Shown one piece after another: positions 515 through 14,684 of a stretch of 64,000 nucleotides of DNA. Numbering within the stretch: position 1 is the stretch's first letter; every line of letters starts with the position of its first letter. The stretch is taken from assembly GCA_963708075.1 (NCBI GenBank), contig OY970194.1, forward strand, positions 2,016,001-2,080,000, written 5' to 3'. A program made the translations under genes and the position numbers. The DNA is from Sedimentisphaerales bacterium. GTDB lineage: Bacteria; Planctomycetota; Phycisphaerae; Sedimentisphaerales; Anaerobacaceae. The notes beneath the pieces are model-generated. The model made no database searches, had not been told where the DNA came from, and was given only the letters and a program-made list of their open reading frames with translations.

Positions 515-3500
515 TTACGGAACGGTCGCGGGGGCCTTGCCTTGAAGCATGTTCGATATCTCCGACCGTTCGCCGGGGGTGAAGACGTTAGTTTCCTTGT
601 CGATCTTCAGGGCCTCGTCGAGATACCGCTTCGCCGCTGCCGAGTCGTTGAGCTTGACGCAGATGCGGCCCAGTTGCAGCAGGGGCTTTGCCCGCTGGCG
701 AGGATCAGCCGAGGGCAGGCCGACGAGTGTCTCGAAGTCGGTCCGGGCGTCAGCCAGCCGGTCCGGCACGTTCGACAGGATGGTGCCCCGTGTATCCAGA
801 AGATTCCTGTCATTGGGCGCCAGGCGTAAACCTCGATCCGCCAGCTCCAGCGCCTCGGCGTACTGCTGATCGTGTTCCTGAAGAATCCAGGCAAGGTCGT
901 TGATCGCTCGTATTTCATTCGGGTACCGCTCCAACAACTGGCGATAGACCTTCTGCGCCCTTTCCGCATCTCCCGTCTGGTACAGGCTGGAAGCCAGCCC
1001 GAGGTGTACATCCGGTGACGTGGGTGCAAGCGTGGCCGCGTGCTCGAACAATTTCACGGCCTGTTGTTGGAGGTCTTTCCTGCCGAGCGACAACAGTGTC
1101 GATGCGGCTTTTAGAAGCGTCGCCGGATCCTGCTGTCTGGCCGAGAGATACGCAGAACTGATGTTCGCAAGCTCGTCGAGACGCTTCTGAGACACCAGCC
1201 ACAGGAACCGGGCGTGGACCACGGTCAGATTGCCCCGATCCAGCCGCTCCGCCTGCTCGATCCATTCTCTCGCTCGCTCGGCATCGCCGGCCAGCCGATG
1301 CATGTCGGCGAGCGTCACAAGGGCCCTGACACTGCCGCTGCCTTCCTTCGTTCGGCAATACGCATCCAGAGAGGCAATGGCCATCTGGGGCAATTCGAGG
1401 GCGGCCAGCACGTGCGAACGCTGGATGAGCAGCTCTTCGTTGGCCGGCTCGCGACCCAGCGCGGAGTCAACGAGCGTGCGCGCCTGCTCCAGCACGCTGC
1501 GGTCCCGGCCGATCAACGCACCATCTACGATCACGTTCACAGCTTCCATGTTGCGAGGGTCCTGCGCAAGGGCCTCACTCGCCAATTTCACCGCCATGGG
1601 AATGTACCCAAGGGCAAGCTCCGCTCTGGCCCTGGCCGACAGCAGCGCCGGGTTGTTCGGATTGGAGGCCAATGCCTGCACCGCGAAGTCGCAGGCCGCC
1701 TTGAGTTCTCCCTGTCGCATGGCGATGGCAATGAGCGCAAGGTGAGCATTGACCGCTGCCGGCTCCAGCCGCAGGGCACTCTCCAGTTTCTCTCGAATCG
1801 TCCCCAACGACTGCGGGGCCGGCTCTTTCAGTATCTGCGCCGCACGAACCGCGAGCAGTTCCGTATCCTGCGGCAGTCGTTCTTCCAGTGCCGTAAGGAT
1901 TCCCAGCGCCCTTTCCCGGTCCTGGGCGGTGGCCCGCAGGAATAGCATTTGCATGAGCTTTCGCTTTAGCCGCAGGTCATCAGGATACGCCTTCAAGCCT
2001 TCCTCCATGGCCGTGACGGCCTGGTCCGGCCGCCCGGTACCGCCATAGAAATTGCCCAGCAACTCGTACCCGGCCGGACCGTAGCCGCGAAACGTGGGCA
2101 GCGTTTTGTAGTCTTTCTCCGCACGTGCGAGGTCGCCTTCCTCTGTGAAATGCGTCGCCCGCATCCAGTGGGCATCGAAGTCATTATGATCCTTCACGTA
2201 GTCATCCAGGACGCGCAAGGCTTCCTCTGCCTTGCCTTCCCCTCTCAGGATGGATGCTTTCACCGCCGCCAGCATCCGGGAGTTCGGGTCGATGGCCTCT
2301 GCGTTCTTCAGATATCCAAGGGCCTGGCCGGCGTCCTTTGTTTCCTGGTACACCAGTCGCGCCAACTGGATTCGTGACCCCGCATCCTTGTTGTTGTTGG
2401 AAGCCTGGAGCTTCAACTCGTCGATGGCTCGCGAGTAGTCCCTCGCACCCAGGGCCATTCGGACTTGCCAGGCGCTGGCCAGGCGAGGATTGATCTGCAC
2501 CTGTTTGAGGACGCCTTCGGCATCCGCGAAGCGGCCTTGTCTTTCCAGAAGGGCCAGCAGCTTTTCGGCGATGTCCGCGGCGGAAGGATTCCCGAGCAAC
2601 CCCTTGCGGCACGTATCCTCAACTTTTTTGAAGTCCCCCTGTCTCTCGTACATTCCCGCCAGGACCAGCACGGGCGCCGACCACGCCGGGTCCGCATCGA
2701 TACACTGCTGAAGCAGGTTCGTGATGTCCTGCTGCTTGGCAGACCATGAAGCAGACGCCAGCCAAGACCTCGCCTGGTGAATGCGCCACCAGAGCCCGCT
2801 TTCCCCCTCCGCCTGGCGCAACTCACCGATCAATGCCGCAGTGGCCGCCGGGTCCGCCTGGATCTCGCGGATTCCCAGAAGCAGAGACCGGGCCTGGATT
2901 TCCTGCTTGTCCTGCGACGCCAGTTCCCTCAATAGACCGATCCCCGCCGCACGGTCCCCGTGAACGATCTCCAGCACGGCAAGCCGGATCGACACGGACC
3001 GCTTCTCCGGCCGTCCGGTGATCGTGTTCAGTCCCGACTTGAGGCAACCGCGGGCGGAATCATAATCCGCGTTGGCCACGTGGAGGTCCGACAGGACCAT
3101 CCAGGGCACGGCGGACTCGGCGTGGCGTTTACAGGCCGCCTCGCAGACGCGGATCGCGTCCGCCAGACGTTTCGTCTGGCGATAGTAGCCCGCCAACTGG
3201 ACCTCGGCCCGCAGCGGGTCCTTGCACTCATCGATGGCCAGCTTCAACTGGCTTTCTGCTTCCTCGGGCCGCTCGAGATGAGAGGCCACGATCGCCTGCA
3301 GCATGCGGATATCCACCTGATCCGGATTCGCTCGACGCAAATCCGCCAGTTCCGCTGATATCTTCTGGAGCCCTTCCACGCGCGCCGCATCGCGCTGTGC
3401 CGCCGCCAGATTGATCGCGGCCCCGATGCGAAGCAGTCTAAGGGATAGATCGGTCGAGCCCAGGGATTCCGCCGCGCCGGCGGTGTCAATCGCTTTCTGC

Positions 3501-4969
3501 CAGTCGCCGAGCTTGGCGTACTGCCTTGCCAGCTCGCGCGTCGCCTGCTGGTCCTGCGGGTTCAACCGCTGGTACTGGACGAGGGCTTTCACCGCCCGTC
3601 CCGCCTGGCCCGTCCGATCGTAGGCTTCCGCCAGCAGCCGCCACAATCCTGGGGCGGAGGCGTCGTTACCCATCACCGGTTCCAAGGCCTCGATGACGGC
3701 GTAGGGCCTGTTCTCGGCCCCCGCCACGAGTGCCTGCAGCCCGGCAACTCTCCGCGGCGACTCGGCGGAGCCTTGCTGGGCACGCACAAGATTCAGATAC
3801 TCATCCAGAGACTGCCGTGCCTCAATGACCTTGCCGGCAGCCACGTACAGCGGGATCGCGGCCGGCAGGACCCGGGCCCTGTGGCCTTTATCCGTCAGCG
3901 ATTTGAGCGTCTCATCCGCCAGGGAGGCAGCCTCGGCGGTCGCGCCCTTGCGCGTTGCCAGTTCCGAGGCGAGGAGGAACCTCGCCACGGTCCAGTCACT
4001 GAGATCGAAGAAGTGCTTCTTCAATTCCTCCTGCGGCAGCTTGTCCACCGCCTGCAGTTCGGCGGCCGCCCGGTCCAATTCGCCATGGGCGATCCATTCC
4101 GCACCGAGGACAATGCGGATGCGGGGGTCTTCCGTGCCCTTTGCATCGGCGGACTCAAGGTCCTTGCGGGCCAGTGCCCGCATCGCCGGCTGATCCTGCT
4201 CGCTCGTGGCGGGCATCTCCGCCAACCGGCGCTGGAACTGCGCCCGGCTGACCAGCGCGACGGCAGAGTCCGGCGAATAGTTCACCGCCCTATTGAGCCA
4301 GTCCAGGGGCGTGGGCAGCGAAGTGCCTTCAGTGCCGGCAGGCGTCTGCGCCGGTGGCGAAGCCTCGCTGCTGACGAGCTGACTCATCTGCACGCAGGCG
4401 CGGACGTATTCGACGTATTTCTCGGGACGGGTTTCGAGTCCCCCGATGAAGCTCACAAGGACCTGTCGGGCCTCCGCCGTCTTATTCAACCGGCTCAGCG
4501 CCTCCGCCAGCCACAGCGGGGCCTGGCGATCATTCGGATCGTGCTCCAATCGTTCCCGGGCGATGCCGGCCAATTCGTCGAAATTCCCCACGCCGCCGTA
4601 GAGCATGGCGAGCTTCTCATAGGCGACATCATCATGAGGGACCAGCTCCAGGATCCGGCGATACGCCGAGATCGCCCCGCTCACCGCGGCGGCATCCAGT
4701 GGCCGGACGGACAGGCTGGCCTCCGCATATTTCCGCAGGACCTCGACGTCGTCTGTATTTCGACTGAGGTACTTGCGGTAGTTCTTGGCCGCCGTGGGCC
4801 AGTCCTGGCCTGCCCAGGCGGTCTCCCCCGCCGCCAGAGACTTCTCCGAGAGCATCCCCCTGTGGGTCTGGCGGGCCACCACCAGCGACACCCCGGCAGC
4901 CGCCGTGACCAGGATCAGGATGATCACCAGCTTGACGTTGACCTTCCCACATCGCTTCCTGTACAACAT
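515..4969 (-). CDS. Large membrane-anchored tetratricopeptide-repeat protein (~1,480 aa), PrsT-like by position
   Basis: N-terminal TM segment (VNVKLVIILILVTAAAGVSLVVA), then many TPR-like helices and a C-terminal AINDLAWIL...LLDTRG motif. Start moved to ATG 4969, which has a GGAGG RBS. Confidence 0.85.
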   Translation of the reverse strand: MLYRKRCGKVNVKLVIILILVTAAAGVSLVVARQTHRGMLSEKSLAAGETAWAGQDWPTAAKNYRKYLSRNTDDVEVLRKYAEASLSVRPLDAAAVSGAISAYRRILELVPHDDVAYEKLAMLYGGVGNFDELAGIARERLEHDPNDRQAPLWLAEALSRLNKTAEARQVLVSFIGGLETRPEKYVEYVRACVQMSQLVSSEASPPAQTPAGTEGTSLPTPLDWLNRAVNYSPDSAVALVSRAQFQRRLAEMPATSEQDQPAMRALARKDLESADAKGTEDPRIRIVLGAEWIAHGELDRAAAELQAVDKLPQEELKKHFFDLSDWTVARFLLASELATRKGATAEAASLADETLKSLTDKGHRARVLPAAIPLYVAAGKVIEARQSLDEYLNLVRAQQGSAESPRRVAGLQALVAGAENRPYAVIEALEPVMGNDASAPGLWRLLAEAYDRTGQAGRAVKALVQYQRLNPQDQQATRELARQYAKLGDWQKAIDTAGAAESLGSTDLSLRLLRIGAAINLAAAQRDAARVEGLQKISAELADLRRANPDQVDIRMLQAIVASHLERPEEAESQLKLAIDECKDPLRAEVQLAGYYRQTKRLADAIRVCEAACKRHAESAVPWMVLSDLHVANADYDSARGCLKSGLNTITGRPEKRSVSIRLAVLEIVHGDRAAGIGLLRELASQDKQEIQARSLLLGIREIQADPAATAALIGELRQAEGESGLWWRIHQARSWLASASWSAKQQDITNLLQQCIDADPAWSAPVLVLAGMYERQGDFKKVEDTCRKGLLGNPSAADIAEKLLALLERQGRFADAEGVLKQVQINPRLASAWQVRMALGARDYSRAIDELKLQASNNNKDAGSRIQLARLVYQETKDAGQALGYLKNAEAIDPNSRMLAAVKASILRGEGKAEEALRVLDDYVKDHNDFDAHWMRATHFTEEGDLARAEKDYKTLPTFRGYGPAGYELLGNFYGGTGRPDQAVTAMEEGLKAYPDDLRLKRKLMQMLFLRATAQDRERALGILTALEERLPQDTELLAVRAAQILKEPAPQSLGTIREKLESALRLEPAAVNAHLALIAIAMRQGELKAACDFAVQALASNPNNPALLSARARAELALGYIPMAVKLASEALAQDPRNMEAVNVIVDGALIGRDRSVLEQARTLVDSALGREPANEELLIQRSHVLAALELPQMAIASLDAYCRTKEGSGSVRALVTLADMHRLAGDAERAREWIEQAERLDRGNLTVVHARFLWLVSQKRLDELANISSAYLSARQQDPATLLKAASTLLSLGRKDLQQQAVKLFEHAATLAPTSPDVHLGLASSLYQTGDAERAQKVYRQLLERYPNEIRAINDLAWILQEHDQQYAEALELADRGLRLAPNDRNLLDTRGTILSNVPDRLADARTDFETLVGLPSADPRQRAKPLLQLGRICVKLNDSAAAKRYLDEALKIDKETNVFTPGERSEISNMLQGKAPATVP

Positions 4970-5114
4970 TACGCTGTTCCTCCAAATACCCCATCTGCCA
5001 TCTGTTGACGCGCAATGCCACGCGCCCCGGATCGCTGCGCATAACGACATGTGATTGCACCGATCAAGCATCAGTCGCCACCAAATCCAGGAGGTTCGAA
5101 TCCGTTTTGCGAAT

Positions 5115-5144: not shown

Positions 5145-5312
5145 CTCTATTATGAACGCATGGGGTGTGCGGGAATACTCGCTTCCGGATCGCTTCTTTC
5201 GCTCAATCCCCCTGCCGTGAGAATACAAGCATGCCGGTGAAGCCCAAGCCGAAGAACTTCACCGGCATGTTTTGCGTGATTATCATTCACGTGAGAACCG
5301 ACCACGAGGCTC

Positions 5313-5872
5313 TCACGCAAACCTGCGAAGCTTCCAACCAGCCACCACGAAACCGAGGGCACCAAGCAGTACAGCAGCCGGGAGCGGAACGAACGAGAGA
5401 CCGACAGGGCCGCCATTGCGCGCAGCAAGGCCGAGTTGTCCACTATGGACCAGTTGCTCCCGTTCCAAGTTGCCGTTTCCCAGCCGCTCGCCTCGTAGGC
5501 ACCGCCCTTCCAGTCCCACGTTGTGAGTTCGAACGCAACCACGTCCGTAATGAGCCCCTCGAAATTGAGATGGAAGTCCAGTACGTCGATGTTCTCCGCG
5601 GTGGCAGCGACTGACCCCTCATCACTGCTCTCAATCGTCATGGAGGGGCTTAGATTCGTCAATCCCGGCACCTCCAGAAATCCAGCAGTCATTACGATCT
5701 TCAACCCGTCGAAATTCGCTGCTTCGCCACCCCCGATCTTTGTATCCGTGAGGCTGAATGCCTGATACCAGGAGTTTGATGTGGTCGCTTCCCCCACAGC
5801 CACGAGGTCAGCGACTACTGGGGCCGTTCCAATGACCAGCACAACCAGCACTGAGAGTCCTAGCTTCTTCAT
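5313..5872 (-). CDS. Exosortase substrate 8 (variant PEP-CTERM tail); one frameshift near 5420
   Basis: Signal peptide MKKLGLSVLVVLVIGTAPVVA-D in ORF 5150..5872; tail VPLPAAVLLGALGFVVAGWKLRRFA in ORF 5313..5519. Confidence 0.8.
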
Positions 5873-6010
5873 ATTTCTCCTTCCATGCCCTATTTGCTGA
5901 GTGTTTCCTTCGTTCTACATCCAGAGTCTTAGCCGCTGATTACCTCCTCCACAACAGATGACGGCGGCCAATGCCTTTCGCAACGATCAGTCACTCGTCA
6001 CCAGAGACAG

Positions 6011-6632
6011 TCACACGAACTTACGCAACTTCAGCCCTGCCGCCAGACCGGCCATAACCAGCATGAACGCCCCGGGCACGGGCACTCGCGGCACCCCGGG
6101 CTGAGTCACCACGGAAACGTTGAACGTGTCCGTGAGACTCGGCGGATCGGCCAAGCCGGTGTTCAGGCGAAGATCGAAGCCGATCTGCGCCAAATCCGCT
6201 GAAGCGAAATTCAACTCCAGCCATGCGGATTGACCAGCCGCGATCACCACCCAGTCAGACGTCAGCTCATTGGCGAACAGGCGAAGCTCCCACGCGCTCT
6301 GGTCGTCGTTTCCCGCGAACACGCGGAAGCCGTCGTAATCCCCGAAGCTGTCTTCCAAGCCGATTCTCATCCAACTCTGATCGCCGCTGAGAACCGCCTA
6401 CAAAACCAACCATCCCCGGCATAATTGCTGGATATTCGACGGCCGGCAGCCAGGGATTCTGATAGACCCATGTGGTGCCATCGAAGACACCCATCAACAG
6501 CCCGGAACTACCGGGGGCCGGGATCTGGCGAAACTCCAGCGCCGTGGCAGAGTCGAGGGTAAACGGACCCGCCGACACCTGCCCGGCCAGTAAACAAACC
6601 ATCACAAATGACAATAGTGAGGCGCGTTTCAT
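6011..6632 (-). CDS. Exosortase substrate 7, paralog of 8453..9061; one frameshift at ~6392
   Basis: The two partial ORFs align end to end with the intact paralog; tail VPVPGAFMLVMAGLAAGLKLRKFV. Confidence 0.85.
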
Positions 6633-6685
6633 TCCTCCTCCTTCTTTCCATCCCTCGGAAGATCGCGCCCATCCGTGACTCTCTC

Positions 6686-7214
6686 TTATGCGAATTTTCG
6701 CAACTTCAAACCTGCTACCCCGATCCCGAGCGCGCCCAGAAGCGCAGCCGCAGGAACCGGCACAGCATAGATCTTCACAGTCAGAAAGCCCGAGTTGTTG
6801 CCGGGGGCAATATCATAGATGTTGAACGAGAACCGGAGCACCAGTGCCCAGCCAGAGCAGGTTGTAGACATGATCTGGGTTGAAGGTGTCTCCCCAGTTG
6901 ACAAATCCACTGTTGACCTGTAGATCCAGCAGGTTCTCGCCGTAGCTCATGTACCGCTCAACGCCGTTCAGCCAGGCATAGCTGGTCGGACCTGAGGCAT
7001 ACTCGGCATCGGCGTAAATACCATCGTTTGCGTAATACGTGCCGCTCGCCTCGAACCGATACAACTGGCCCACATCGAGAGCTATGGACGTGGCAGTCTC
7101 ACCAGTGCCGAGAACGGTCAACGTGTCAAAAGGCACCAAATCCGCCCTCGCAGGCACAGCACCCAGGCACAAGGCCGCGATACAGACAACCAACAAGAAT
7201 CTCTTCATGGACAT
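6686..7214 (-). CDS. Exosortase substrate 6; one frameshift at ~6831
   Basis: Signal peptide MKRFLLVVCIAALCLGAVPARA-D; tail VPVPAAALLGALGIGVAGLKLRKFA in the shifted frame. Confidence 0.85.
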
Positions 7215-7347
7215 CGTTTCTCTCCCCTTCCTTAGAAAATGGTAGAATGGCACATCCAGTGCTCGATCAGACCCGATTCTCATCTTCTCAACTGCTCACA
7301 TACTCAACGTGCAGCCGGTGGCGTGAAGCTTCCCACCGATGCCGTAC

Positions 7348-8301
7348 TCACACAAACTTCCGCAACTTCAAACCGGCCACACCCATACCGAGCATACCCA
7401 GCAGAACGGCGGCCGGAAGCGGCACAACTGCACCACCGGCAAGTTCCAGGACCGTGACGCCCCACATACTCATGTTAGCATACGATCCTCCCCAGGTCAT
7501 GCTGTGCAGCCCCGAACTCCAGGTGTCACTAAGAATAACCGTGTTCGACCCATCATAGCCATAGCCAAACATGGAGTGACCCTCCACGTGGATCATCACC
7601 ACCCGGCCTGCATCGATTTCAGCCTTGTAATCGTCGAAAGTGAATCCGCTCGAGGCTACATTGTTCGTCACTTGCGTGTAGATGTCCGCCACTTCGTACC
7701 CGGCGTACTCGACATACTCCTTCACGCCGTACATGCCATCGTTGCCCTGAAGGCCGAAGTATTCAAGAATACCAGGGGTAACCGAAGTGCCGCTGTCGTA
7801 GGCGTAGAACGTGGTGGCTCCATTCACATTGCCTATGCTGTCCTGACTGGTCCCCATGAAGTCGGCCAGACAGTTATAATTGTGAGTTGGAGTAAGGTCG
7901 TCGCCGGAGGCTCCGTAGCCGAAGCCGATACCACCACCGGTGTTATATGCATAAGGATGGCCGGGACCGGCACTGTAGAAATCATACTGGTGCCCGGTAC
8001 TGGCAATCGCTTGATTGACGAGGGCACCCGAATTGCCAAAGGTGCTTGCCTCCGCGACGCCTCCCGGGACAAGGTTGGAATACCCAAGTCCCTCATAGCC
8101 GTTGCGGTCGTAGAACCCCATCATCATCCCGGCAGAGGTTGCCGAGCACCCATACCACCAGTTGTAGCCCGGATTAGGTTCGGGACCGGCCAGAGTGCCG
8201 CCCTGGACGTAATAGGACAGTTCTTCCATGTCCGCCCGCGCCGCTGCAGCGATCAGGCACAAAACCGCCAAACAGAGAACCCGCAACCAGTGTCTTTTCA
8301 T
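7348..8301 (-). CDS. Exosortase substrate 5 with papain-like (C10/C39-like) cysteine peptidase domain
   Basis: Signal peptide; WWYGCSATSAGMMMGFYD (Cys) and VEGHSMFGYGYD (His) motifs; tail VPLPAAVLLGMLGMGVAGLKLRKFV. Confidence 0.8.
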   Translation of the reverse strand: MKRHWLRVLCLAVLCLIAAAARADMEELSYYVQGGTLAGPEPNPGYNWWYGCSATSAGMMMGFYDRNGYEGLGYSNLVPGGVAEASTFGNSGALVNQAIASTGHQYDFYSAGPGHPYAYNTGGGIGFGYGASGDDLTPTHNYNCLADFMGTSQDSIGNVNGATTFYAYDSGTSVTPGILEYFGLQGNDGMYGVKEYVEYAGYEVADIYTQVTNNVASSGFTFDDYKAEIDAGRVVMIHVEGHSMFGYGYDGSNTVILSDTWSSGLHSMTWGGSYANMSMWGVTVLELAGGAVVPLPAAVLLGMLGMGVAGLKLRKFV

Positions 8302-8452
8302 CGCCATTCCATCCTTTCTCCCAATCTGATCTTCCATAAGCACCCATCCATCAGGCGATCAGGTGGCCGCTGCCGTCACAGCGCCATCGACCGACACCCC
8401 AAACACCCGGGGCCTTTCCAACTACTCCTTCTGCAGCGACCCGATCTGCCTC

Positions 8453-9061
8453 TCACACAAACTTCCGCAACTTCATACCCGCGACACCCAAACCGAGCAT
8501 GCCCAGCAGCACCGCTGCAGGCAGGGGCACGACCGCGGAAATGCTGAACGCATCCGAAACGCTCGGCGCAGGGGTCAAACCGGTGTTCAGACGAACATCG
8601 AAGCCGATCATCGTCAGGTATCCCGAGCTCGTTAGGTCGAACTCCAGCCACCTGAATTCACCGGGCACCAGTGTCTGCCAGCCAGATTCCCCGGCACTCG
8701 TGACCAGCCGAACGTCCCATGCGCTGTTGTCGTCATTGCCCAGCCAGGCACCGAAGCTGTCAGTGGTCCCGGACCCGAAAGTCCCTGTCGCTCCAATTCG
8801 CATCCAGCTCGAATTGCCGCTGAGACTGCCCACAAAACCGACATCGCCCAGCATGCCCGCCGGGTATGCGACGGCCGGCAAATAGGGATTCTGGTACTCC
8901 CACCCGGTGCCATTGAAGACGCCATTCAATAGCCCCGAACTGCCGGTGGCAGTGATCTGAAGAAAATCCAGGGCCGTTGAATAGTCGAGGGTATACAGAC
9001 CGGCAGAGGCCTGCCCGGCAAGCAGACAGACCACCACAACCGATAGTAGAATACGTTTCAT
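8453..9061 (-). CDS. Exosortase substrate 4
   Basis: Signal peptide MKRILLSVVVVCLLAGQASA; tail VPLPAAVLLGMLGLGVAGMKLRKFV; GGAGG RBS. Confidence 0.9.
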   Translation of the reverse strand: MKRILLSVVVVCLLAGQASAGLYTLDYSTALDFLQITATGSSGLLNGVFNGTGWEYQNPYLPAVAYPAGMLGDVGFVGSLSGNSSWMRIGATGTFGSGTTDSFGAWLGNDDNSAWDVRLVTSAGESGWQTLVPGEFRWLEFDLTSSGYLTMIGFDVRLNTGLTPAPSVSDAFSISAVVPLPAAVLLGMLGLGVAGMKLRKFV

Positions 9062-9117
9062 TTCTATTTTTCCTCCGTTTCCATTGTCTCAGACCAACCT
9101 ATCCGATCACGAAACCG

Positions 9118-9936
9118 TTACACGTACTTGCGCAACTTCAGGCCCGCCACGCCGAAACCCAACATCCCCAGCAGAACCGCTGCCGGCACAGGCACGACGT
9201 GAAAGCTATCCGGCCCGCTGCCCAACCCGAATCCGACGTTTCCCAAAGAATAGCCATCCAGAGAGAGGCCGGTAATACCGAACTCGAAGGTGGCCATATC
9301 CCGGACAAGGAGCAGATTGTTCAGGGAACTAGTGGCGGCATCGCCGTGGTAGATCGAGTAGTTGACCCCGTCCACAAGGTTACCGTTGAACTGATTGGCT
9401 GAATCCGTGATCAGATACGTGGTCGTCCCGGGAATGGGCGTATTGTTCCCAATAGTCCCGATACCGAAATTCAGGTACGGAAAGCTCCCGGGGTTTCCAT
9501 CTATGAACGCCCATGACTCCGCCCGGCCCTGCACATTCCCTGGCTCACCGTACACCCGGATGTCAGTGAATGACTGCAGGACATCTGTAGCCGTCTTACG
9601 AGCGAGGTAGACACTCCCCGTAGCATCCTGATACGTCAACGTGGGACGAGTGCCGTCGCTGTTGACGATGTCGAAGTAGAAGCTGCTCAAGACATCATCC
9701 TTACTGTCGCTTGGCACCGGCGAGACGTTGTAAAGACTCACCGTCAGCGTGCTGCCGCTTATCGTAAGGTCGGCCTGGAATTTGACGTCGGTTCCTGATA
9801 GGGACGTACCTTCCCACTCATACAGGGCAGCCTGGGCCGACTGCGCAAGCAGCAAGCAAGCCAAGCACCCAACTAGCAATGTCACAGATCCTTTATTTGT
9901 ACGCGTACTTCTCTTTGATACAGTCATTCTCTGCAC
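9118..9936 (-). CDS. Exosortase substrate 3 (N-terminal domain resembles XDD4-type exosortase-dependent surface proteins)
   Basis: Signal peptide ending AQSAQA; ADLTISGSTLTVSLYN...DVLSSFYFDI; tail VPVPAAVLLGMLGFGVAGLKLRKYV. Exact start uncertain. Confidence 0.85.
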   Translation of the reverse strand: MQRMTVSKRSTRTNKGSVTLLVGCLACLLLAQSAQAALYEWEGTSLSGTDVKFQADLTISGSTLTVSLYNVSPVPSDSKDDVLSSFYFDIVNSDGTRPTLTYQDATGSVYLARKTATDVLQSFTDIRVYGEPGNVQGRAESWAFIDGNPGSFPYLNFGIGTIGNNTPIPGTTTYLITDSANQFNGNLVDGVNYSIYHGDAATSSLNNLLLVRDMATFEFGITGLSLDGYSLGNVGFGLGSGPDSFHVVPVPAAVLLGMLGFGVAGLKLRKYV

Positions 9937-10182
9937 CCAATCTCACCGGCCCGTGTCCTAAGCGTCTGGCTCGTTTCCCGACAATCGCATGCACACTCTC
10001 ACGCAATCACCGATTCTCCGGCGGTCCAGACCTGAACCTCGGGTTGCCTTCTATTCAAACGATGGTCTTTCCTTTCAACATCACCTTGCATCCCTTCACT
10101 ACCACACACCAACTGCACCCACCGGCAGATGCTTTTTCACCCGACAATCGCCTGCCTGCCGATCAAGCCCCTTACGAGGCTT

Positions 10183-11052
10183 TCACACAAACCTCCGCAA
10201 CTTCAACCCCGCCGCCCCCAAGCCGAGCATACCCAACAGAACGGCCGCCGGAACAGGGACTATGGCCGCGTCGTGGCTGAACCAGTAGATGCCCGGCTGC
10301 AACGTCAGGGGAGTAGCCAGAGTGTACTTCAGAAAGAAAATGTCATCAGTCACGCTGCCCATGTCGGTGCCGAACACGCGGTCCACGCCGGTGTCGCCCC
10401 AGGTGAAGACGCCCGCGACGTTGTCGGATGAGAAGACGTCGCCGGTGAACGAACCCGTATTGACGGGCAGCAGATCTCCGGCCACATTGGACCAGATATT
10501 CATGCGGTATTGAATCATGGGATCGTCCCGGTTGAAACCGGAGTTCTCGTCAAAGTAGCCAATGATCTGATCGAAGGTGGTCGCCGTCTCAATTTTGAAG
10601 TAGCCGGCATAGATCCAGTCGAAGTTGTTGGACATCGAATAGCCGCGATAGAGTCCCGGCGTATCTCCACTTGCCAAACCCTGGGCGGTAGCGTTGTAGT
10701 AGTTCCCGTACGTCCCATCCTCGATACCATTGTTGTTGTAAACAATGCTGGCCCCACTCTTGAGGGTCAAAGCAAAACCGGCGTTTTGGGTGAACCAGTC
10801 ATCCTTGTGCCATGTGTCTAAGGTGTAAGAGCCCCACCCCGGATCATCCGTTATATAGCGGAACGTCCCACCGGACGCATTGTCTCCGTTGGGGATATTC
10901 CCCGTTGGGAATTGGCCGCCAGTAATAATGTAGTAGTAGCCGTGGCTATCGATCTCGTAATCAGCATGCCCATTGAAGAGCTCCGCGCTCGCCAGAGGGC
11001 TGCACGCAGCCACAAGCAATATGGCCAGCAACCGTATCTTCACGTTCATCAT
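10183..11052 (-). CDS. Exosortase substrate 2
   Basis: GGAGG RBS before MMNVKIRLLAILLVAACSPLASA; tail VPVPAAVLLGMLGLGAAGLKLRRFV. Confidence 0.9.
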   Translation of the reverse strand: MMNVKIRLLAILLVAACSPLASAELFNGHADYEIDSHGYYYIITGGQFPTGNIPNGDNASGGTFRYITDDPGWGSYTLDTWHKDDWFTQNAGFALTLKSGASIVYNNNGIEDGTYGNYYNATAQGLASGDTPGLYRGYSMSNNFDWIYAGYFKIETATTFDQIIGYFDENSGFNRDDPMIQYRMNIWSNVAGDLLPVNTGSFTGDVFSSDNVAGVFTWGDTGVDRVFGTDMGSVTDDIFFLKYTLATPLTLQPGIYWFSHDAAIVPVPAAVLLGMLGLGAAGLKLRRFV

Positions 11053-11117
11053 CCTAAAACCTCCCGCTCGCTCCTCCACGCCCAATAGCACGTGTGAGCA
11101 AGACAGCATTTCTCAAA

Positions 11118-11783
11118 TCACACATGCTTACGCAACTTCACACCGGCGACGCCGAGGCCGAGCATGCCTAGCAGAACAGCAGCGGGGACAGGAACTACGG
11201 CAAAGTCAGTGGTAGCGCTAATCGACAGTCCCGTTCCATTCTCTGTCCAGGTTTCGATATACTGCCAGTTGCCTATATCTTCGAGCCAGAATTGCCCGAC
11301 CCCTGTGACCAGCATGACGAAGCCGCTCTCCTCGGAGAAATCGGTGTCTTCTGCAGCAAGAACACTGTAGGAGGAATTCGGACCGAGATACGTATATACG
11401 CCGGTATAGTGATACGTCATCGCAGGGTCAAGATTGACGCCGCTGCCGGAATAGACAAATACATCTGGGTCATACCAATGCGCCCCATCCCAAACCGTCG
11501 GATTGATGCTGAACTGAGTCATGCTAGGGGAGCCCACTTGGTACAACGGGTCCCCGGCAATGCTGTAATGTGGGATCGTGGGACCCAGCACCAAATTGCC
11601 GTCCACATCGTAGTAGTAACCACCAGCAGGCTGCTCCGGTGTCGGTCCTGTGATCATCACGACATCTCCCGTGGTATCACTCCAATCGGTTCCAAGGATG
11701 GGCGTGGTCTGCCAGCTTAGATCTGCGACGGCGGGCGCTGCCACAAAGGCACACAGTACTGCAACAAGAGTCACGCTTCTCAT
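11118..11783 (-). CDS. Exosortase substrate 1 (first gene of the array)
   Basis: GGAGG RBS; signal peptide MRSVTLVAVLCAFVAAPAVA-D; tail VPVPAAVLLGMLGLGVAGVKLRKHV. Confidence 0.9.
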   Translation of the reverse strand: MRSVTLVAVLCAFVAAPAVADLSWQTTPILGTDWSDTTGDVVMITGPTPEQPAGGYYYDVDGNLVLGPTIPHYSIAGDPLYQVGSPSMTQFSINPTVWDGAHWYDPDVFVYSGSGVNLDPAMTYHYTGVYTYLGPNSSYSVLAAEDTDFSEESGFVMLVTGVGQFWLEDIGNWQYIETWTENGTGLSISATTDFAVVPVPAAVLLGMLGLGVAGVKLRKHV

Positions 11784-11829
11784 CGTCTTTAGCCTCCACT
11801 TGGCTTGTTCACATCATGAGTCTTGGATG

Positions 11830-11891
11830 GCTCGCACTCTTGCATCGCAGTGACAGTAGAGAAAACCTCTGCATCGTCACAGGGTGCGAGC
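11830..11891 (-). promoter_or_regulatory. Nested inverted repeat (RNA hairpin) between the RGPP ORF and the first substrate gene
   Basis: GCTCGCAC (11830-37) / GTGCGAGC (11884-91) enclosing GTGAC/GTCAC and AGAG/CTCT stems. Confidence 0.5.
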
Positions 11892-11901
11892 ACACGGAGA
11901 G

Positions 11902-12510
11902 CTACTCATGTGCCAAGTCGGGAGGTCCACGGGAGGCGAGAACGGCAGGCGTGAATTGCGATTGCCGCCAGAGGGCAACGATGGTCTCCTGGCGGTATGA
12001 TGACGTGATGTCCCCTGCCCTGCACTCCGGCTGAACGAAGCAGACCGGCGCATGGCAGAGGCAATCGGGCGAAATGGCGTGGCTGTGACCGATCTGGACC
12101 GGCCCGCCGTCGTGGTACCACTGTGGGACATGACTGAACGACAATCTCTTGACCAGGGGAACGGACCGGCACATCCCCAGGCCCAGCAAGGCATACAGGC
12201 ACAAGCCGAAGCTGTTCTGCCCATCCGACTGGATCTGCGCGGGGGGCAGTTCACCGGCCCGTCCCATTCCGCCATGCAGATGGGGCAGAGACTCGACAGG
12301 AAGCGAACCGAGACTCGCGATGCTCAGGCAATCCAGCGGATTCGAGAAGTCCATGCCCCGGGGAGCAGTTGCGACAGAGGCGCGCACCGCCTGCTGACAC
12401 CCGGCATCCGGCGAAGACACCGGCCTCATGTCCGCGCGAACGGACGTACCGAGTGCAAGTACCCCGAGAATAATGTAGAGACTCTCACTCCGTTGGATCA
12501 CCACAGACAC
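11902..12510 (-). CDS. Membrane protein with signal peptide, TM helix, His/Cys-rich tail and C-terminal RGPP motif (candidate arrest peptide)
   Basis: LYIILGVLALGTSVRA-D signal; FGLCLYALLGLGMCR helix; ends ...VLASRGPPDLAHE*; AAGGTGGA RBS-like sequence before the GTG start. Confidence 0.7.
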   Translation of the reverse strand: MSVVIQRSESLYIILGVLALGTSVRADMRPVSSPDAGCQQAVRASVATAPRGMDFSNPLDCLSIASLGSLPVESLPHLHGGMGRAGELPPAQIQSDGQNSFGLCLYALLGLGMCRSVPLVKRLSFSHVPQWYHDGGPVQIGHSHAISPDCLCHAPVCFVQPECRAGDITSSYRQETIVALWRQSQFTPAVLASRGPPDLAHE

Positions 12511-12532
12511 TCCACCTTAAAATGCAGCCTCT

Positions 12533-12561
12533 AGTCCACCAGAAATCCCTCCCGGTGTCAA
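12533..12561 (-). promoter_or_regulatory. Candidate sigma70-type promoter for the RGPP ORF and substrate array
   Basis: Perfect TTGACA, 17-nt spacer, weak -10 TGGACT preceded by TGG. Confidence 0.35.
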
Positions 12562-12929
12562 GGAAAATCCATGAAAAAACCAGGGATTCGGCCCGCCATG
12601 CACCTTTCCGCCGACATCGCTCGTAACTCCTTTATTCACAAGACCTTGCGAGTGACAGTTGGCACCCCCTCCGCCGCAGATCTGGACCGCAAAACAAGAG
12701 AATCCGAAACAAATCCGGACCCAATCCAGATGACGGACACGCCCTTTACTCGCTTGTCCGTCACTACCTGAATTCAGCGTGTGCGTGCGTTTGCGTCTAT
12801 TCCAGCCTGCGAGCTTCGCGTCACACGGGTTCACAATCTCGCAGGACTCGTCTGATGCTTTGCACGTTCCCCCTTTCGTGCATGTTTCGAGTCTCGATAG
12901 GGGGATTTCGAATTCCCCATCATGCCAGG

Positions 12930-13931
12930 TCACGCACAATCGGGCACATCTGAAGAGGATTTCTTGCGGGCCCGGACGACGGATTCCGCCTGGGCACCCG
13001 GCTGTCCCTTGCAGGACTTGGAATCGGGCATGAAGATCCTATCCATCAGCGAAAGCTCGCCGAACAGCAGCATGACGGCGATGGGCATCATGACATACCC
13101 GGCGAAGTCGTGGAAGAACTTCTCGCCTACTTCACTACTGACATGCAGCATGAGGACCGCCGTCACGAAGATCCGCACGATATTGCAGACCACCGCCACC
13201 GGAATGCTCGACGCCAACAGGACAGCTTTCTGCCACCGCGGTCGCTTGACCATATACGCAATGAACGCCGCGACGATAATGAACGCCATCAGCATACGAA
13301 GTCCGCTGCAAGCCTCCGCCACCGCCATTGGCGTACTCTCCCCCAGCATGACAACATTCCCCTGCTGCCCGACCTCAATCCCCACCGCCTCTAAAAGCAC
13401 GACAGACCCCGTCGTCGCCATCCTCTGCAGCGGTCCGGCAATCAGACGATGAGCGACCCCAGGAAGCGGCAACATGAGGAATAGAAACAGCAGAATCCAA
13501 AGGACACGTCGAAACACCTGACGTCCTGCCACCAGGAGAACCAGTCCTGCCGCCGTCAGAACAAGCGAATACCGCTCGGCCGCGGAACGCATGAAAAGGA
13601 ACCCGTAAGTCCGGACCAGTTGCGCCAATACAACCAAGATGGTCCCCCCCCACCAGCACGGCATCAGCGAGCACTGCCGCAGCCCCTTCCATTCACGCCA
13701 CATGAGAAACACGGCAACCAGCGGAACGAGTTGGCCTGCGGAGTAGTCGTCGCTTTTCTGCCACAAACTGAAAAGACCTGCTGCGACCGGCCAATACGAC
13801 CATGCCGTGATTATCGCCAATACCAGCACGAGCGAGAGGAGCCTCGAGGTGCTACCTTGTGAACAAGCTGCACAGATCGCTTGCAGGGTACCTCGCTGGC
13901 GGGTGTGACGGTCGGTCATATTCGGCCTCAT
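12930..13931 (-). CDS. xrt: Exosortase (EpsH family)
   Basis: Multi-pass membrane protein with VAEACSGLRML (Cys), CNIVRI (Arg) and FFHDFAG (His). Confidence 0.95.
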   Translation of the reverse strand: MRPNMTDRHTRQRGTLQAICAACSQGSTSRLLSLVLVLAIITAWSYWPVAAGLFSLWQKSDDYSAGQLVPLVAVFLMWREWKGLRQCSLMPCWWGGTILVVLAQLVRTYGFLFMRSAAERYSLVLTAAGLVLLVAGRQVFRRVLWILLFLFLMLPLPGVAHRLIAGPLQRMATTGSVVLLEAVGIEVGQQGNVVMLGESTPMAVAEACSGLRMLMAFIIVAAFIAYMVKRPRWQKAVLLASSIPVAVVCNIVRIFVTAVLMLHVSSEVGEKFFHDFAGYVMMPIAVMLLFGELSLMDRIFMPDSKSCKGQPGAQAESVVRARKKSSSDVPDCA

Positions 13932-13932
13932 A

Positions 13933-14684
13933 TCACTTCTTTTCAGGTGACTCGCGGAGTGCCCCTGAGCCCTGGTCCTGAATCATGTTGTCGAATAGAC
14001 TGGCTATGGGTACGAAAGAATCGATGGCAAAGTCCCGGAGGATTTCTTCCGCTATATCCTCCCCGGCGGTCCCAACCGGGGTAATGATCTGTATCTCCGC
14101 CGCATAACGCACCGCCGAATGACGACGCCAGACTTTCCACTGCACCGCCGGAATATCGCTGTAGTGGTGCCCATCAACGATGAGGTAGAGTAGAGTCGCT
14201 ATTCTCTCCATACCCAACCTGTTGCGGGCGAACTCAAAGAGGGTGCATGGCCGCATGGTCCCATCGGCTGCAGGCAGCTCTATCAACCGATGGCTGGCGA
14301 GGAGCCACCCGGCTCCTGAGTAGCAGTTCTCGGGGTTGTGGCGCAGCAGTTCACCAGCGTTGACGCCGCATGTGACATATAATGTGATCGCTTCCTGGCC
14401 GTTACGGCGGGAGTACCGACGGCTGACGTGAGAGTCGGAATCGGTCCGCTGCACTATGGCTTCATCCAGCGGAACGTCCTCGCCCACCCAACCGCCAATC
14501 GCCATCGGAAACCGGCCCAGCGCATCGGCGCAATTGGGGCCCCCGTCGCGGAATCAGCAAAATGTGCAGCCAGCGTGCGGTGCGCGAGAGCAAAAGCCAG
14601 CATCACCAGACTAGCTACAATCGCCGCAAGGATCACCGGCCGGAAGTCCGGCTTGTTGCTTTCTGTGGTTCGTTTCGCCTTCAT
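13933..14684 (-). CDS. epsI: Exosortase-associated EpsI family protein; one frameshift near 14525
   Basis: N-terminal TM in ORF 14454..14684; FPMAIGGWVGED, SRRY and HNPENCYSGAGW in ORF 13933..14505; adjacent to the exosortase. Confidence 0.85.

Follow-up and report, generated by a model that had tools for sequence, protein, structure and literature searches.

In a 64,000-nucleotide (nt) stretch of DNA from a Sedimentisphaerales bacterium (contig OY970194.1; "the window" in what follows, with coordinates counted from its first letter and all features named on its minus strand), a gene at 11902-12510 that stands directly upstream of an array of exosortase cargo genes is a member of a real, large, unannotated planctomycete family, and the mRNA around the Arg-Gly-Pro-Pro (RGPP) motif near the end of this gene, which we call the leader, is specifically complementary to the Shine-Dalgarno (SD) region of its own cargo gene. 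Reading these sequence features together, we think that the leader is probably an arrest peptide of the RAPP/RGPP class that unmasks the cargo ribosome-binding site for as long as a ribosome is stalled on it. The parts of this proposal differ in strength: that the R[AG]PP motif stalls ribosomes is likely; that an SD-unmasking switch operates in addition to stalling is reasonably likely; and that engagement by the exosortase is the input to the switch is a tentative suggestion.

In the proposed mechanism, the leader would be a Sec-targeted membrane protein with a single pass, and it would act in cis on the mRNA that encodes it. When no ribosome is stalled (i.e., in the off state), ∼30 nt around the arrest codons would pair with the cargo SD region 50-180 nt downstream, by means of a CCUCC carried in the arrest zone or of an anti-SD in the short tail codons, and the cargo gene would be closed. 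In the on state, a ribosome arrested at R[AG]PP would cover the arrest zone and set the ribosome-binding site free, such that translation of the VPxP-CTERM cargo would be confined to times when a leader chain is held in arrest at the membrane. The duration of the stall would presumably be set by the fate of the nascent chain, at that moment with its transmembrane (TM) helix already in the membrane and its WYHDGGPxQIGH..CF.QP segment just beyond the ribosome exit; the likeliest partner of the chain would be the dedicated XrtD-like exosortase system that co-occurs with the leader family.

Exosortase systems are widespread and the control of their cargo supply is almost unknown, and RAPP/RGPP leaders have recently been shown ahead of genes beyond Sec and YidC. 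If the proposal is right, it provides a directly testable translational switch for exosortase cargo, one in which the stall codons double as the anti-SD element, together with a natural series of hundreds of diverged copies, several per genome, in which to study how the part of a nascent chain outside the tunnel tunes an RxPP stall. A literature search found no paper linking exosortase or PEP-CTERM to arrest peptides, in agreement with the original prediction, made from the sequence of this stretch, which knew of no such control; the text of PMC12992588 names neither exosortase nor PEP-CTERM.

The leader family and its C-terminal motif

The leader open reading frame (ORF) begins with GTG, ends with TAG at 11902-11904, and encodes 202 residues. 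Its N-terminus, VSVVIQRSESLYIILGVLALGTSVRA (residues 1-26, 12433-12510) followed by DM, reads as a signal peptide, coincides with an AlphaFold2 (AF2) helix at residues 7-25, and ends as in the cargo proteins (VRA-D, of the ..A-D type), as had been predicted. A conserved TM helix, SFGLCLYALLGLGMCRSVP (residues 100-118, 12157-12213; AF2 helices 100-110 and 113-116), is followed by the basic residues LVKR and by a conserved juxtamembrane cytosolic segment, VPQWYHDGGPVQIGHSHAISPDCLCHAPVCFVQP (residues 128-161, 12028-12129), which is predicted to be disordered by AF2. The 84 residues that follow the helix are rich in His and Cys (6 His and 4 Cys), as the original prediction stated. The putative arrest module, ALWRQSQFTPAVLASRGPP (residues 179-197, 11920-11976) closes with the RGPP motif (CGT GGA CCT CCC, 11920-11931), five codons (DLAHE) ahead of the stop, just where the original prediction had placed it. 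The stalling site is assigned by analogy with ApdA and ApdP, and the allocation of the two motif Pro residues to the P-site and A-site is likewise taken from the work on those peptides (PMC10951233). Against the Pfam and NCBIfam profiles, including EpsI and other known exosortase accessory proteins, the leader ORF gave no family at E<=0.01, and the Pfam profile for PEP-CTERM found no match in it; in the ESM Atlas, the nearest named clusters (LpqS, DUF2946, and SecM) lie at 0.82-0.83, under the level that carries weight.

Leader matches were found in 19 of 61 related genomes, every one of them within a single taxonomic family (at E<1e-15 in 16 of the 19) and often with 2-4 copies per genome. 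The window's own genome contains a second copy at 69% identity, and a hidden Markov model (HMM) of the family recovers exactly these two. A profile search returned 293 clusters at 90% identity, all of them unnamed or called "hypothetical protein", of which the two with source names come from Phycisphaerae or Phycisphaerales metagenome-assembled genomes; an exhaustive profile search gave 769 representatives (50% identity, E<=1e-3), 219 of these at E<=1e-30; and a scan of species-representative genomes yielded 65 leader loci under the titles Phycisphaerae, Sedimentisphaerales, Planctomycetota, and "uncultured Pirellulales". Annotators thereby gain a name for a common Phycisphaerae "hypothetical protein". 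One family member (L040:7998-8606, minus strand) is without the C-terminal module and motif and looks degenerate.

Across 28 aligned genomic leader copies, R194, P196, and P197 are the sole invariant columns. R[AG]PP is present near the C-terminus in 29 of the 31 copies of a first genomic set (of the two exceptions, one runs off its contig and the other is degenerate) and in 46 of the 48 complete copies of a second, non-duplicate set (the others being one RSPP and one without a motif). It is likewise found in 119 of the 120 best database clusters of the family, with a lone RSPP as the exception, and in 139 of the 150 best representatives at 50% identity, where the other 11 comprise four RPPP, one each of RSPP, CGPP, RASP, and HAPP, and three with a truncated or divergent C-terminus. 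RGPP and RAPP interchange freely between family members, and the tail that follows is short and unconserved (most commonly 3 residues, range 1-62, in the 120 clusters and 150 representatives). The original prediction had called for a terminal R[AG]PP to be conserved among homologs, as it is.

In the ORFs of 400 residues or more in the window's genome, RGPP and RAPP occur at 0.25 and 0.29 times the expected frequency, compared with 0.78 for AGPP, 0.86 for AAPP, and ∼1.2 for PPGR and PPAR. RAPP and RGPP, the cores that most readily give robust arrest refractory to elongation factor P (EF-P), are reported to be depleted across phyla and to tend toward the C-termini of small secretory or membrane proteins 5' of diverse genes (PMC12992588). 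With 202 residues and, as read from the sequence and the AF2 helices, an N-terminal hydrophobic segment and a TM helix, the leader is likewise a small (<300 residues) protein of the secretory or membrane type. Nine ORFs in the genome combine a hydrophobic segment with an R[AG]PP ending, and two of them are the leader family; the other seven were rejected as leaders, looking spurious or unlinked to cargo. One 74-residue ORF with a hydrophobic segment (G000:C1:1006694-1006918, plus strand) ends in RAPPV; what comes next is a terminator-like hairpin and then a gene running in the opposite direction, which leaves it no evident target to regulate.

The ORF coordinates confirm that the leader lies directly 5' of the cargo genes and on the same strand. 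A gap of 118 nt separates it from the first cargo gene (11118-11783), which encodes 221 residues with a signal peptide, a VPVPAAVLLG..KLRKHV tail, and a weak PEP-CTERM match, and all eight cargo products of the window combine a signal peptide with a VP[VL]P..LLG..KLRK tail. The same arrangement recurs across the family, as the original prediction had asked of homologs. In the first set, 27 of the 29 motif-bearing copies are followed by an SD and a signal-peptide gene that starts 51-180 nt past the stop (in one of the 27, the downstream gene overlaps the leader stop by 62 nt), and the remaining two reach contig ends; a VP[VLI]P..KLRK-type tail is encoded by all 26 complete downstream genes, the 27th being cut by a contig end. 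In the second set, 43 of 47 copies have a co-directional signal-peptide gene downstream, 40 of these are complete, and 39 of the 40 carry a CTERM-type tail. The link between leader and cargo spans sorting-signal subtypes, because the cargo tails of distant relatives are of the [VI]PAPGA..GW.RRR kind. Most leader copies are scattered over separate loci, each containing one or two cargo genes, and tandem leader-cargo cassettes occur between an exosortase and a giant TPR gene (three in L029:5280-14691 and two in L028:5736-17184).

The window's genome has at least three kinds of C-terminal sorting tail: ∼17 ORFs are of the VP[VL]P..KLRK type (tail HMM E<1e-5), with the two arrays headed by a leader contributing ten, ∼35 have [VI]PAPGA..GWLRRRR tails, and a few are of the classical PEP type.

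Complementarity between the arrest zone and the cargo Shine-Dalgarno region

In the window, the arrest codons are predicted to pair over a long range with the SD region of the first cargo gene. In both the centroid and the minimum free energy (MFE) fold of 11760-11960, GCCUCC (the Ala-Ser codons before RGPP; GCCTCC at 11932-11937) and ACUUGGC (the codons after it; ACTTGGC at 11912-11918) pair with GCCAAGU-GGAGGC, so that an anti-SD zone at 11912-11937, flanking and overlapping the motif, has as its predicted partner the SD region GCCAAGTGGAGGC at 11792-11804. This long-range fold (201 nt) has a z score of -2.3, with 5 of 200 shuffles folding equally well. A large hairpin after the stop had been part of the original prediction; a hairpin is indeed found at ∼11828-11895, where it forms the inner branch of the fold that joins arrest site and SD, and by itself (131 nt) it is ordinary (z = -0.13, with 85 of 200 shuffles as stable). 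When the ribosome footprint is masked, the computed probability that the SD is unpaired rises from 0.02 to 0.29.

Among 29 copies, 27 use CCT for the first Pro of the motif, with no such constancy in the Arg, Gly/Ala, and second Pro codons, and 24 of 26 further close relatives use it as well; elsewhere in the leader genes CCT accounts for 17% of Pro codons, and in the genome's long ORFs for 12%. Because CCT is followed by CCN, the mRNA reads CCUCC at this point. At 15 of 27 loci, the MFE fold joins arrest zone and SD zone by at least 4 paired nt, compared with 87 of 540 shuffled controls.

To compare matched with mismatched duplexes, the 33 nt that a ribosome stalled at Pro-Pro would cover were hybridized in silico with the SD zone of their own locus and with those of other loci. 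In the first set, the own duplex averaged -15.0 kcal/mol and the foreign one -13.1 kcal/mol (permutation p = 0.0003); duplexes of eight upstream control zones were weaker (-10 to -12 kcal/mol), and seven of the eight gave no significant difference. Replication with 43 further loci gave -15.6 kcal/mol for own and -12.4 kcal/mol for foreign pairs, a difference reached in 0 of 5000 permutations, as was also the case in each subset (the close set of 23 loci and the distant set of 20). In distant relatives, the anti-SD often lies in the few codons that follow the motif, still within the footprint, which would explain a tail that is short and yet free in sequence.

The evidence from motif and synteny would fit equally well if the stall at R[AG]PP were to lower cargo expression, by collision-triggered mRNA cleavage, Rho termination, or blocked coupling, as a negative feedback when unprocessed cargo accumulates, and for the substrates of a sorting enzyme such feedback would be physiologically more sensible. 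Nonetheless, a complementarity between arrest zone and SD that is specific to each locus is what an unmasking switch predicts and is superfluous for cleavage or termination, and we regard a purely repressive stall as improbable.

A number of results weigh against the unmasking switch, or against parts of it. On the side of the mRNA, the MFE pairing is missing in 12 of 27 loci; by partition function, 12 of 27 loci place <=0.05 of the SD pairing mass inside the footprint; the footprint is the best of the tested masking windows in only 4 of 27 loci; and when all windows along the coding region are scanned, the arrest window ranks first as anti-SD in only 3 of 27 (median rank fraction 0.18). One control zone of the first set, at offset -33, gave p = 0.01, and two of the close set, at -180 (0.0014) and -60 (0.019), also had small p values, at much weaker energies. 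Distant relatives use CCT as the first Pro codon in only 8 of 21 cases. On the side of the genes, for five VP[VL]P-tail loci in the window's genome, the 900 nt upstream contain no R[AGSP]PP ORF, which means that a leader is not obligatory for this class of cargo. The regulatory logic is problematic as well, the controlled genes being cargo and not machinery: were exosortase activity to release the stall, cargo synthesis would fall in the presence of free enzyme. Finally, 78 residues separate the end of the TM helix from the stall site, a distance that, from force-profile work, is too great for membrane insertion to pull on the chain, so that insertion itself would not be able to release the stall.

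No Rfam family matched window 11000-13000 at E<=1. A hairpin of the form YTCCC-loop-GGGAG was rejected as a family-wide element, the strict pattern occurring in merely 5 of 29 copies. At these five loci (L021, L025, L026, L028, and L030), the hairpin, whose arms are anti-SD-like and SD-like, lies within the first 25-45 nt past the stop, and most other copies have some stable hairpin of different sequence at the same place.

The nascent chain and its possible input

Residue conservation, measured in 233 leader-family sequences, is concentrated in a few places. A26, D27, and M28, at the end of the signal peptide, are conserved in at least 85%, the periplasmic region (residues 30-95) is poorly conserved, and within the TM helix S100, L103, C104, L105, A107, L108, and G112 are conserved in at least 92%. 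Conservation is high again in IPxWYHDGGPxQIGHSxAISPDC..CFxQP (residues 128-161), where W131, H133, P137, and Q139 are invariant in 141 sequences, and in SLWRxSQFTPxVLASR[GA]PP. The AF2 model (from 141 sequences) has a mean predicted local distance difference test (pLDDT) score of 56 and a predicted template modeling (pTM) score of 0.23, with only three helices (residues 7-25, 100-116, and 170-186) and confidence below 50 for residues 128-163. The lack of a confident fold outside the three helices fits a nascent-chain element better than an enzyme, and in the light of the model the 128-161 segment would more plausibly bind a partner as a linear element than form a domain. If residue 196 is placed at the peptidyl-transferase center, the last ∼35 residues would be in the tunnel and the 128-161 segment would be just outside its exit, tethered to the TM helix.

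The TM helix had been thought to resemble a sorting signal without the PEP motif. At the profile level this does not hold up: with an HMM built from 26 cargo tails, no leader exceeds 1.1 bits, and 633 of its 2204 ORF matches in the genome score equal or better, for which reason sorting-signal mimicry by the helix was rejected at that level.

These features might also be those of an ordinary accessory membrane protein of the exosortase system, in which R[AG]PP would serve as a cytosolic binding or structural motif and cause no stall. Such a protein would account for a TM helix and cytosolic segment more conserved than in typical leaders, for a length of 200 residues, and for the co-occurrence with the exosortase described below. 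It is nevertheless hard to reconcile with a family in which invariance is limited to a motif that the rest of the proteome avoids and that stalls ribosomes in distantly related bacteria (PMC12992588, PMC10951233), whose post-motif residues are unconserved, whose mRNA around the motif co-varies with the SD of the next gene, and for which AF2 predicts no fold; we think it unlikely to be the explanation.

The exosortase gene of the window (12930-13931; Pfam Exosortase_EpsH at 3e-60; best NCBIfam match to the XrtD/VPLPA-CTERM type, below the model cut-off) and an EpsI-like gene (DUF3485 by profile match, 13933-14505) lie upstream of the leader on the same strand. Counting as orthologous those exosortases that match the window's at >=53% identity (every other match being at <=46%), we found the ortholog in 12 of the 61 genomes and the leader in 11 of these 12; five leader-bearing genomes, with completeness of 74-97%, showed no matching exosortase. 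The distance from the orthologous exosortase to a leader copy downstream of it is 170-420 nt in seven genomes, and in two more there is intervening DNA. The leader family thus co-occurs with one exosortase subtype. In the twelfth genome (G001), the exosortase is broken by a stop (C6:52411-53308), and the leader was not found there. Further exosortase paralogs are present in the window's genome at C1:1683845-1684645 and 1730869-1731465.

The leader could conceivably be a decoy exosortase substrate, such that engagement of its TM helix and juxtamembrane segment by the enzyme would set the stall time and each leader-cargo cassette would meter the synthesis of its own cargo against the free capacity of the enzyme. 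We put this forward with reserve; if true, no arrest peptide found earlier would have controlled a sorting enzyme's substrates in place of machinery.

The same core of stalling and SD unmasking might be driven by a metal or by redox state, read by H133, H142, C150, C152, and C157, with binding or folding beside the tunnel exit releasing the stall, as proposed for leaders of the CruR type and some Streptomyces RAPP leaders. The conserved His and Cys residues sit in the segment that would be just outside the ribosome at the stall, and RAPP/RGPP leaders are reported 5' of metal-homeostasis genes, one of them with conserved Cys/His (PMC12992588). However, the downstream genes here are exosortase cargo (26 of 26 and 39 of 40) and not metal genes, the family keeps company with one exosortase subtype, AF2 gives no fold for the His/Cys segment, and only H133 is invariant, with H142 and C157 ∼90% conserved and the other Cys residues more variable. 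We therefore consider a metal or redox input rather unlikely.

A similarly low probability attaches to a leader that senses nothing, in which the arrested chain would anchor the polycistronic mRNA at the membrane and then open the cargo ribosome-binding site, so that tail-anchored cargo is made beside the translocon and exosortase; XBP1u, which reportedly targets its mRNA, would be comparable. At the stall the TM helix would have fully emerged, with its 78 residues of separation; leader-cargo cassettes are tandemly repeated within one array; the evidence for SD pairing applies equally; and the robust, EF-P-refractory nature of RAPP/RGPP cores (PMC12992588) would suit a tether. What speaks against a mere tether is that a generic anchor needs no TM helix and juxtamembrane segment conserved in sequence and that five cargo loci manage without a leader.

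Known arrest peptides and the surrounding locus

SecM has the C-terminal arrest motif RAGP, and the SecM-secA and MifM-yidC2 pairs are monitoring substrates, a class to which VemP also belongs. The leader resembles them in having an N-terminal targeting signal, an arrest motif a few codons before the stop, and (as predicted here) a downstream SD sequestered by mRNA that a stalled ribosome can cover. It differs from them in that SecM and MifM control the machinery component that they monitor, whereas the leader has the exosortase upstream and the substrates downstream, for which reason the label "monitoring substrate" given to it originally does not apply in the strict sense; in addition, insertion force on its TM helix would not reach over the distance to the stall, and it has no Pfam SecM match.

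The leader also resembles ApdA, ApdP, CruR, and seven Streptomyces lividans leaders. These too are small proteins of the secretory or membrane type in which R-[AG]-P-P comes shortly ahead of the stop codon and is depleted elsewhere in the proteome, and the gene that immediately follows is co-directional. Unlike these, the leader family (unrelated to them in sequence, with no Pfam or NCBIfam match) precedes exosortase cargo, has a TM helix and a 34-residue cytosolic segment conserved in sequence, and occurs in multiple copies per genome as leader-cargo cassettes; its stall is a prediction. With PEP-CTERM and VPLPA-CTERM signals the leader shares a TM helix followed by basic residues and a periplasmic part behind a signal peptide, but its helix is in the middle of the protein (residues 100-118 of 202) with 84 residues following, and it has SDxQxS where the cargo has VPxP.

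The source data of PMC12992588 include six RAPP-ending multi-TM ORFs (97-246 residues) 5' of IPTL-CTERM genes (supplement file 8, rows 617, 787, 2570, 3907, 4133, and 4309; RAPP 1-15 residues before the stop), which pass without comment in the text. Like the leader, they encode membrane proteins, and the next gene encodes a C-terminal sorting signal; they differ in being unrelated in sequence, multi-pass, devoid of WYHDGGP, and from other lineages. They hint at a parallel case, given which the gating of sorting-enzyme substrates by an arrest peptide, if real, may have evolved more than once. WYHDGGP and LASRGPP do not occur in the portions of the PMC12992588 supplements covered here, and the leader family may be listed in the remainder.

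A promoter and terminator scan returned no promoter-like and two weak terminator-like sites, not above shuffles; the latter two are hairpins at 12700-12731, between the exosortase and the leader. Transcription of the leader-cargo array may be separate or may come from read-through. Beyond the first cargo gene, seven further genes with VP[VL]P-CTERM tails occupy 5150-11109. Four are intact, at 10183-11109, 9118-9936 (XDD4 family), 8453-9061, and 7348-8343. The originally reported count of eight cargo genes is correct, except that three of the eight are split across two reading frames, with the signal-peptide and sorting-tail parts in separate ORFs (6813-7283 with 6686-6910; 6267-6632 with 6011-6370; 5150-5872 with 5313-5519); these three, at 5150-7283, could be frameshifted pseudogenes or assembly errors. 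A 1518-residue PrsT-like TPR protein (515-5071, profile match) closes the locus, an architecture also seen in L028 and L029.

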